Positions 46,106 through 46,471 of a stretch of DNA of 64,000 nt are shown piece by piece. The notes beneath the pieces are model-generated. The model was not told the origin of the DNA. It saw only the letters and a list, made by a program, of their open reading frames with translations, and ran no database searches. Source of the stretch: an uncultured Chloroflexia bacterium (lineage in GTDB: Bacteria > Chloroflexota > Limnocylindria > Limnocylindrales > CSP1-4); contig CAWCQK010000017.1 in the NCBI GenBank assembly GCA_963797685.1, forward strand, positions 129,652-193,651, written 5' to 3'. The position numbers and the translations under genes were made by a program. The stretch's first letter is position 1. Every line of letters begins with the position of its first letter.

Positions 46106-46471
46106 TCACTTCGAGGACTTGGCCTGCTTGGCGACGACTTCCTGGGCGGCGACGACTTCCTTGAGCTGAGCCTCGAGCTGCTCGCGCAGAACGCCGAGCT
46201 CCTCGACCTCGAGCGACTGGGCGACGATGTCGGTCCGCTCGTAGATCGTCTCGGTGGGCCAGATGGACCCCGGTCCACACGTTGGTCGTGTGCCGAACTC
46301 GCAGAAGTGGGAGAACCCGGGGCAGAAGGAGATGTAGGCCGGACAGAACGGGGTCCGGTAGATACAGGTGATGACCGACGGCAGGCGACAGGTCCCGAAC
46401 ACGCAGGCCACCAGGGTCTGCGACCCACACGGGAACTGCACCCGGAGCTTTCGGGCTTCGAAATCTGGCAC
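46106..46471 (-). CDS. 121-aa cysteine-rich protein (8 Cys at near-heptad spacing) with C-terminal coiled-coil-like helix; candidate substrate
   Basis: GTG start at 46471 with GAGGAGG 6 nt upstream. FPCGSQTLVACVFGTCRLPSVITCIYRTPFCPAYISFCPGFSHFCEFGTRPTCGPG, then SLEVEELGVLREQLEAQLKEVVAAQEVVAKQAKSSK. The stop is 22 nt before the next gene. Confidence 0.7.
   Translation of the reverse strand: MPDFEARKLRVQFPCGSQTLVACVFGTCRLPSVITCIYRTPFCPAYISFCPGFSHFCEFGTRPTCGPGSIWPTETIYERTDIVAQSLEVEELGVLREQLEAQLKEVVAAQEVVAKQAKSSK

Follow-up and report, generated by a model that had tools for sequence, protein, structure and literature searches.

The locus analysed here raises the question of what becomes of a small, Cys-rich protein whose gene is followed by two others that appear to encode a machinery for thioether ring formation. 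It lies within a 64,000-nucleotide (nt) stretch of DNA, hereafter the window, from an uncultured bacterium of the Limnocylindrales (Chloroflexota; contig CAWCQK010000017.1, positions 129,652 to 193,651). On the minus strand of the window the gene order is ATP-binding cassette (ABC) ATPase, FtsX-type permease, SARP/BTAD regulator, and then four genes designated A, B, C and D. In our view protein A is probably a lanthipeptide-type ribosomal precursor, the predicted substrate of a lanthionine system that is split over two enzymes. The three genes on which this reading depends are the following:

46106..46471, minus strand: gene A, a Cys-rich candidate precursor of 121 amino acids (aa), with GTG start and TGA stop
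44905..46083, minus strand: gene B, 392 aa, a standalone protein with a predicted phospho-Ser/Thr-lyase fold, HopA1/LanY-like
42519..44897, minus strand: gene C, 792 aa, with an N-terminal domain (residues 1-117), a Hanks-type Ser/Thr kinase (about 118-398) and a LanC-like cyclase

Gene A is a genuine conserved coding gene. A preliminary description of this DNA had quoted a protein that proved to be the exact minus-strand translation of 46106-46471, and the following of its listed features are present. They comprise Cys at positions 15, 23, 28, 36, 43, 50, 57 and 65 (gaps of 8, 5, 8, 7, 7, 7 and 8), three Phe-Cys heptads (RTPFCPA, YISFCPG and FSHFCEF), about ten interspersed Ser/Thr, exactly ten being found between C15 and C65, and a Shine-Dalgarno sequence (46484-46478) separated by 6 nt from the GTG at 46471. 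Expressed as a feature, the latter is:

46478..46484, minus strand: Shine-Dalgarno sequence GAGGAGG of gene A, in which GGAGG is invariant, together with the start codon, in 7 loci

The homologue and context search that the preliminary description had proposed revealed that gene A is conserved and always beside B-C (16/16 loci). Its homologues form 40 full-length clusters of 58-93% identity, with 26 invariant columns spread across the entire length. The guanine-plus-cytosine (GC) content of the three codon positions is 0.60/0.48/0.86, a coding signature. Comparison with the gene of locus L005 yielded 17 synonymous and 8 non-synonymous codon changes, and the differences between close relatives fall mainly at the third position; gene A is under purifying selection. 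The window has 70% GC and holds many overlapping open reading frames (ORFs), which is what might suggest an untranslated chance frame. That explanation has practically no chance of being right in view of the codon-position signature, the homologue clusters, the mostly synonymous third-position changes, the conserved Shine-Dalgarno sequence and start codon, and the distant homologues found at the same position in another phylum. The candidate of a spurious ORF was thus ruled out by conservation.

Genes A, B and C lie side by side in close packing; the start of C is most likely the ATG at 44897, 7 nt past the stop of B. The order A (1-3 copies)-B-C was found in all 16 loci, which belong to Chloroflexota (Limnocylindrales) and Thermoleophilia. 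Eight loci of the Limnocylindrales (L001-L008) were found through A and have the order SARP-A-B-C, mostly followed by D. A ninth (L009), also found through A, comes from a member of the Thermoleophilaceae, i.e., from another phylum, and carries two A-like genes in tandem (118 and 170 aa) ahead of B and C. The remaining loci (L010, L011, L012/13, L014, L015 and L016) were found through homologues of B, and all six have 1-3 A-like genes just upstream of B and a kinase-LanC gene just downstream. Since these six were retrieved by B alone, they are unbiased with respect to A. The conserved unit is A-B-C, often with a SARP regulator. In L014 the public gene call (5834-6004) includes no more than the final 56 codons of an A-like ORF of about 150 aa, which indicates that annotation pipelines truncate or miss the A family. 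In L001 the copy of gene A (10001-10366) is scrambled at residues 63-82 with intact flanks, and B, C and D are called in fragments; the scrambling fits assembly frameshift errors and not biology.

The architecture of protein A was examined in a set of about 45 diverse sequences, comprising 42 relatives from a profile search of 1.84 billion representatives and the copies from the loci. The family is laid out as an N-terminal motif, a variable core and a C-terminal helix segment, which in the window correspond to:

46430..46471, minus strand: N-terminal motif, residues 1-14, MPDFEARKLRVQFP; family consensus xFEAKRLRVQLP
46265..46429, minus strand: core, residues 15-69, with eight C-x3/4-[ST] units
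46109..46207, minus strand: C-terminal helix, residues 89-121, with a near-invariant L-x-x-LREQLEAQLKEV; candidate recognition element ("follower")

The N-terminal motif of the family (FEAKRLRVQLPC) can be extended to xFEAKRLRVQLPCGxxT, in which the conservation of F, L, R, V, Q, P and C reaches 90% or more among the 45 relatives. Cores are 61-142 residues long, contain 4-18 Cys, are rich in Pro, Gly, Thr and Ser, and are unalignable between lineages; paralogues of the same operon have both flanks in common and unrelated cores. Fixed flanks around a variable core are the pattern typical of precursors of peptides that are synthesised ribosomally and modified post-translationally (RiPPs) with common recognition sequences. 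After the core of A comes a conserved C-terminal segment of about 50 residues, which across phyla reads VDPExLPxLREQLEAQLKEIExAE with the core motif LPxLREQLEAQLKEI; in the alignment of close homologues its invariant columns are L92, L95-E100 and Q102-V106. In the AlphaFold2 model, residues 1-88 including the core have a predicted local distance difference test score (pLDDT) below 50 and no confident fold, apart from a low-confidence short strand at residues 9-11. The preliminary description had proposed a C-terminal helix of 45 aa; a helix is indeed predicted, but for residues 89-120 only (32 aa, pLDDT 61-74). That the tail is amphipathic or a coiled coil was not borne out, its Eisenberg hydrophobic moment being 0.27 versus 0.34 +/- 0.10 for shuffled sequences. 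Hydrophobic residues do occupy the heptad "a" positions (L92, L99, V106 and V113). No match of A to Pfam or NCBIfam precursor models was obtained, even at E<=10. One profile match, P0185, concerns the tail region alone and falls in a 1324-aa protein with seven matching stretches.

The same description had interpreted A as a substrate of inverted topology, with a follower instead of a leader. In support of this, the conserved C-terminal helix is common to paralogues with unrelated cores. On the other hand, it had missed the N-terminal stretch of 12-14 residues, which is at least as conserved (mean top-residue frequency 0.71 versus 0.60 for the tail), and the layout is therefore motif-core-helix. 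The near-invariance of LREQLEAQLKEV, polar residues included, and its retention in a paralogue with a decayed N-terminal motif suggest a recognition role from the C-terminal side, while the equal conservation of the N-terminal motif favours bipartite docking over a pure follower. Accordingly, we hold the follower claim with less confidence than the claim that A is a substrate.

The most informative feature of the core is the register between Cys and Ser/Thr. Seven of the eight Cys of A have a Ser/Thr at +4 and the eighth at +5 (C15-T19, C23-T27, C28-S32, C36-T40, C43-S48, C50-S54, C57-T61 and C65-S69), and the +4 count was matched by one in 200,000 shuffles; the paired Ser/Thr are invariant or almost so in close homologues. 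In the pooled family cores, Ser/Thr occurs at +4 of Cys in 64% of cases versus 14% expected (z=28). Moreover, 409 of 423 family Cys (97%) have a Ser/Thr at +3 to +5, compared with about 36% expected from composition by our own estimate and with 37% in a shuffle control that was run on the window -4 to -2. The family unit is C-x-[F/L/G]-[P/G]-[T/S], repeated every 5-8 residues (mode 7), which explains the near-heptad spacing of the Cys.

The usual polarity, with Ser/Thr upstream of Cys, was the one first expected, and it was rejected as the downstream +4 register is much stronger than any upstream offset in the family cores. About 25% of the Cys are directly preceded by Ser/Thr, which is too close for a ring and favours pairing of that residue with an upstream Cys. 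The coherent pairing would be Cys(i) with Ser/Thr(i+4), a polarity reversed relative to most lanthipeptides. A few lanthipeptides, e.g., cinnamycin, have rings in which Cys precedes its partner. The earlier proposal of a substrate for up to eight thioether rings is strongly supported by genomic context as far as the candidate substrate is concerned, whereas its loose Ser/Thr-Cys pairing has to be replaced by the specific +4 register. In L011 a third small ORF (6711-6998, 95 aa) lies upstream of two A-like genes and is devoid of the N-terminal motif. Its seven Cys are followed by Ser/Thr at +4 in six cases and at +5 in the remaining one, and its C-terminus is short and helical; possibly it is an additional precursor that has degenerated or whose start is miscalled.

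With regard to gene B, Pfam, which should include HopA1 (PF17914), gave no match even at E<=10, and PDB sequence and profile searches gave only noise. An AlphaFold2 model based on 38 homologues reached a pLDDT of 87.5 and a predicted template modelling score of 0.86, and its top 28 Foldseek matches in the PDB all belong to the phospho-Ser/Thr lyase superfamily. They include HopA1 (4rsw/4rsx, E ~5e-7) and LxmKY chain B (9dk1-3), with a probability of 1.00; the latter, about 310 residues long, is presumably the lyase subunit, judging from this length and from the naming of LanY. Other matches are the class III-type enzymes SalKC, CuvL, ThurKC and PneKC, as well as SpvC, OspF and VirA. The LanKC alignments are short (135-165 columns), and we take them to cover the lyase domains of these enzymes. 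The identity of B is thus owed to the fold search and not to sequence methods. Five residues are invariant in the B family (K223, Y225, K254, R264 and Y271), and their spacing reproduces that of the catalytic set of the OspF/SpvC/HopA1 group, namely K104/H106/K136/R148/Y158 of SpvC and the mutagenised R187/K219/R229/Y236 of CaoY (PMC9486802), the agreement being one of spacing only. Catalysis in that group involves a Lys base, a Lys/Arg that stabilises the enolate, an Arg that binds the phosphate and a Tyr. The order of secondary-structure elements at the N-terminus of B differs from that of a strict RiPP recognition element (RRE) (PMC12710340). More than 600 homologues of B were found, all unnamed.

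Protein C combines the Pfam domains Pkinase and LANC_like and has no lyase domain. Its best NCBIfam match is LanL (E=7e-53, 180 bits), which covers model positions 187-807 only, i.e., kinase and cyclase, leaving the lyase region unmatched; the class III model NF038151 scored 88 bits against a cut-off of 575. The kinase motifs are intact (HGDVHPSN, corresponding to HGDxxxxN, and DFG), and the best matches of the kinase are Pkinase and Hanks kinases of bacteria, e.g., StkP and PknB. The LanC motifs GAAHG / WCNG / LCCG align to GAAHG / WCHG / LCHG of LANCL1, and LANCL1/2 are the closest in sequence to this domain among solved structures. The catalytic His and the zinc ligands of LanC-type proteins reside in these motifs, and on this basis the cyclase of C would be of the zinc type, with Cys instead of His at the third ligand position. 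The motifs of C are present in every locus examined, and residues 1-117 form a conserved domain.

Taken together, these assignments suggest the following route. The kinase of C, judging from its domain identity, would phosphorylate the Ser/Thr of each C-x3-[S/T] unit. B, to which a lyase fold and conserved residues of catalytic type are attributed, would eliminate the phosphate and yield dehydroalanine or dehydrobutyrine. The zinc-type LanC domain of C would then add a Cys thiol to the dehydro residue at +4 (3-5 across the family), as the register implies. For protein A the outcome would be a tandem series of small thioether rings, up to eight in number, in which Cys is the N-terminal partner. 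The N-terminal motif and the C-terminal helix are both most likely enzyme docking elements, and the helix would act from the C-terminal side in the way that the helical leaders of class III act from the N-terminal one.

A number of observations weigh against this interpretation. Homology or fold is the basis of all the enzymatic steps proposed. At the level of sequence, B matches neither HopA1 nor any Pfam or NCBIfam model, and the correspondence of its catalytic residues comes from spacing and not from superposition. C scores 180 bits against the LanL (NF038150) cut-off of 650 bits. For its N-terminal domain, neither the sub-sequence searched against Pfam nor a 7-sequence profile searched against the PDB gave a credible match or a peptide-binding fold. 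Regarding A, the AlphaFold2 model was built on a shallow alignment, the tail is not measurably amphipathic by the hydrophobic-moment test, and in Limnocylindrales core and enzymes are equally conserved, unlike in antibiotic-type lanthipeptides. Furthermore, no conserved protease or exporter accompanies the A-B-C module in the loci examined. In L010 (3963-6422, 13802-15295) and L011 (4007-6505, 14607-16148), large S15/S9-type (PepX-like) and Tricorn/DPPIV-like peptidase genes flank the module. They are possible maturation proteases, confined to one Thermoleophilia-type lineage represented by two related loci.

Three other explanations of gene A need to be considered. According to one, A is still a lanthipeptide-type substrate, but it has a very short N-terminal leader (residues 1-14), and the helix is part of the product, serving in oligomerisation or surface attachment, or acts in export or immunity. 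The N-terminal motif, at least as conserved as the tail, would be consistent with this, and so would its strand-like prediction by AlphaFold2, since leaders bound by RRE-type domains take that form (PMC12710340). The tail-only matches of P0185 mean that the tail may be a generic helical segment, and an uncleaved product would fit with the lack of a conserved protease. Nevertheless, nearly all residues of LREQLEAQLKEV are invariant, polar ones too, which a generic coiled coil would not need. In addition, a paralogue in L011 (7016-7375) combines a degenerate N-terminal motif with an intact tail, and the 95-aa ORF upstream of it dispenses with the motif and keeps both C-x3-[ST] units and a short helical tail. 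We consider a short leader of this kind a plausible, though less likely, alternative.

The other two explanations do without a cyclised product. Eight Cys within 51 residues, and up to 18 in relatives, together with the Cys-ladder motifs of the neighbouring gene D, might bring to mind an unmodified metal-binding, redox or disulfide-laddered repeat protein, whose adjacency to B-C would reflect regulation. We give this little credence, given that CxxC and CxC pairs are absent and His is nearly so, that the Cys spacing of 5-8 is irregular, and that the 97% coupling of Cys to Ser/Thr has no metal-site rationale. Likewise, the core varies in length between fixed flanks, no signal peptide would direct the protein to a disulfide-forming environment, no confident fold is predicted, and synteny with the lyase and kinase-cyclase genes is strict. 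Alternatively, A could be a phosphorylation target in signalling or damage repair, C phosphorylating it, B eliminating the phosphate and the LanC domain adding a small-molecule thiol as eukaryotic LanCL proteins do. The fact that, of the solved structures, LANCL1/2 come closest in sequence to the LanC domain of C is in line with such a role, as is the placement of human LanC-like proteins within the class IV clade (PMC7268733). An intermolecular thiol, however, would not call for each and every Cys to be located 3-5 residues from a Ser/Thr, and multi-copy, core-variable substrates fit product diversification and not signalling; we consider this very improbable indeed.

The lanthipeptide-type reading can be compared with the systems already described. 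As in lanthipeptide precursors in general, a small gene lies beside genes for Ser/Thr dehydration and LanC-type cyclisation (16/16 loci), and its core has Cys and Ser/Thr in ring-forming positions; an N-terminal leader of the FNLD, FxLD or ELQ type followed by a C-terminal core was not found. The class IV LanL enzymes (VenL/SgbL) also have a Hanks-type kinase fused to a zinc-type LanC, and the same chemistry of phosphorylation, elimination and thiol addition is expected. The zinc-ligand and catalytic-His motifs of LanL are present in C. LanL enzymes have three domains, an N-terminal OspF-like lyase, a kinase and a cyclase, whereas C has an unrelated domain of about 117 residues in the place of the lyase, and the lyase function here is assigned to a separate HopA1-like protein, B. 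Class IV precursors possess an FxLD leader, while A is 3-4 times longer, has no such leader (no NCBIfam match) and carries a conserved C-terminal helix.

Class V LanK/LanY systems (CaoKY for cacaoidin, LxmKY for lexapeptide) resemble the present one in having a standalone HopA1-fold lyase and a separate kinase-bearing protein, a likeness that holds at the level of the fold only. The spacing of K254, R264 and Y271 in B matches that of K219, R229 and Y236 in CaoY, and B has K223 where CaoY has Arg187. In class V the kinase is a free protein of the APH type, and a LanC cyclase is absent from most pathways (PMC9486802, PMC11186320); here, by contrast, a Hanks-type kinase is joined to a zinc LanC. 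The precursors known from class V have leaders at the N-terminus. With respect to class III LanKC enzymes (ThurKC, CurKC), whose leaders bind as helices in a kinase/lyase groove (PMC10604976), a conserved helical Leu/Glu/Gln-rich precursor segment is a shared and plausible docking element, its binding being predicted in our case. In class III that helix is N-terminal, the N-terminal lyase is fused and the cyclase lacks zinc ligands, while here the helix is C-terminal, C has no fused lyase and zinc-site motifs are present; given these motifs, A-B-C is not a class III system.

ProcM, the prochlorosin synthetase, has CCG instead of CHG at the third zinc-ligand position, and this one enzyme acts on several precursors with common recognition sequences and unrelated cores. 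C has the same CCG motif, and in A-B-C, too, several precursors may be handled by one enzyme. ProcM itself belongs to the class II LanM enzymes and differs in its dehydratase domain, and its precursors have long N-terminal Nif11-type leaders. Outside the lanthipeptides, bottromycin has a C-terminal follower and freyrasin has repeated C-x3-D thioether units, both made by YcaO/radical-SAM chemistry. They offer a precedent for C-terminal recognition and for many Cys-x3-acceptor units, with a chemistry unlike that of a kinase, a lyase and LanC.

A-B-C would represent RiPP biosynthesis of the lanthipeptide type in which the enzyme split, the layout of the precursor and the ring register are all new. 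Neither the architecture nor the precursor family was found described in Pfam, NCBIfam or the searchable literature, in which coverage of subscription journals is incomplete, and a lanthipeptide with a follower was likewise not found in that literature, to which the same restriction applies. We tentatively put forward, as something short of an even chance, that A-B-C is an unrecognised lanthionine class of uncultured Limnocylindria and Thermoleophilia. This class would be defined by a HopA1-type free lyase and a lyase-less kinase-LanC, by precursors of 100-190 aa with 4-18 C-x3-[S/T] rings of reversed polarity, and by a C-terminal-helix follower, possibly acting with the N-terminal motif. Instead of a short antibiotic, the product might then be a large, multiply stapled "lanthiprotein". 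If true, it would be a new lanthipeptide architecture that joins a class IV-type kinase-cyclase to a class V-type free lyase, and, as far as we could find, the first lanthionine system guided partly by a C-terminal recognition segment. Additionally, a precursor design of many identical short ring units, with Cys before its partner, may provide a scaffold for the engineering of multiply stapled peptides. The family lives in abundant, uncultured soil lineages. A RODEO survey discards ORFs longer than 120 aa (PMC7268733); due to this length limit, to truncated gene calls and to the lack of a Pfam or NCBIfam model for A or B, the family is invisible to current mining rules.

The putative regulation of the operon involves the following features, the second of which precedes gene A:

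46632..47471, minus strand: SARP-family regulator (BTAD), Pfam BTAD E=1e-18, AfsR-like in NCBIfam
46537..46609, minus strand: heptamer array upstream of A, with seven positions in exact 11-nt phase; candidate SARP sites

The regulator gene lies upstream of A in L002-L008 and L016. The units of the array are GTGACGG, GTGGCGA, GTGACGG, GTGACGG, a degenerate one, GTGATAT and GTGACAT. The array noted in the preliminary description does exist, with GTG(A/G)nnn at 46609, 46598, 46587, 46576, 46554 and 46543 and the degenerate unit at 46565, and the GTGAC cores are invariant in an alignment of 7 loci. Phasing by 11 nt is typical of SARP heptamers. Tandem Repeats Finder did not report the array, a sigma-70 promoter scan returned nothing in the cluster, and GTGACGG is not enriched across the window (27 matches versus 23 expected). 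It follows that the case for the array is based on the exact phasing and the cross-locus conservation and not on motif counts. The locus has what is expected of a SARP operon, i.e., a BTAD regulator and direct heptamers in 11-nt phase in the promoter, with binding predicted, and the regulator would activate the A-B-C operon through the phased GTGAC heptamers.

Upstream of the regulator, the transporter genes are arranged as follows:

47631..50887, minus strand: ABC transporter, with ATPase at 50057-50887 and FtsX-type permease at 47631-50060 (Pfam)

The transporter is present in L001, L003 and L004 and absent from L002 and L009-L016. A role in export or immunity is possible, and as a dedicated exporter it was rejected because the linkage is seen only in the closest relatives. 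It adjoins a divergent HisKA_3 histidine kinase and a LuxR/GerE regulator (50902-52125 and 52393-53067, both on the plus strand), a layout reminiscent of peptide-antibiotic sensing and resistance modules. The LuxR/GerE regulator ORF has no receiver domain, apparently owing to a frame break near 52390.

On the other side of the module lie:

40989..42407, minus strand: gene D, 472 aa, with two (C-x3)5-C runs; a neighbour outside the conserved core
42469..42508, minus strand: second heptamer array, upstream of D, with GTGATGG, GTGACGG, GTGACGG and GTGAGTG in 11-nt phase

In its helical N-terminal half, protein D carries two runs, CEVICGYFCEKRCGGVCLSFC and CHQLCRFFCSARCRKVCRKLC, each of six Cys spaced at exactly i+4, and its C-terminal half is beta-rich. 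Nothing useful came from scanning D against Pfam and NCBIfam, even at E<=10. Its family has at least 303 members of 53-60% identity in Acidobacteriota, Bacteroidota and Thermoleophilia, all unnamed. D is absent from L009-L016 and lies on the opposite side in L002. D was considered as a part of the system or as a second substrate; because its family occurs widely in unrelated phyla and most A-B-C loci have no D, it was rejected as a core component. Judging from the second array, it may be under the same SARP regulator as gene A, that is, a probably co-regulated neighbour. Further along, a sugar-kinase-like ORF (37648-39321, minus strand) has an Arg/Pro-rich tail that seems to be out of frame, and an overlapping ORF (37749-38210, minus strand) continues the expected sequence; the break is probably an indel or an assembly error in the metagenome-assembled genome.

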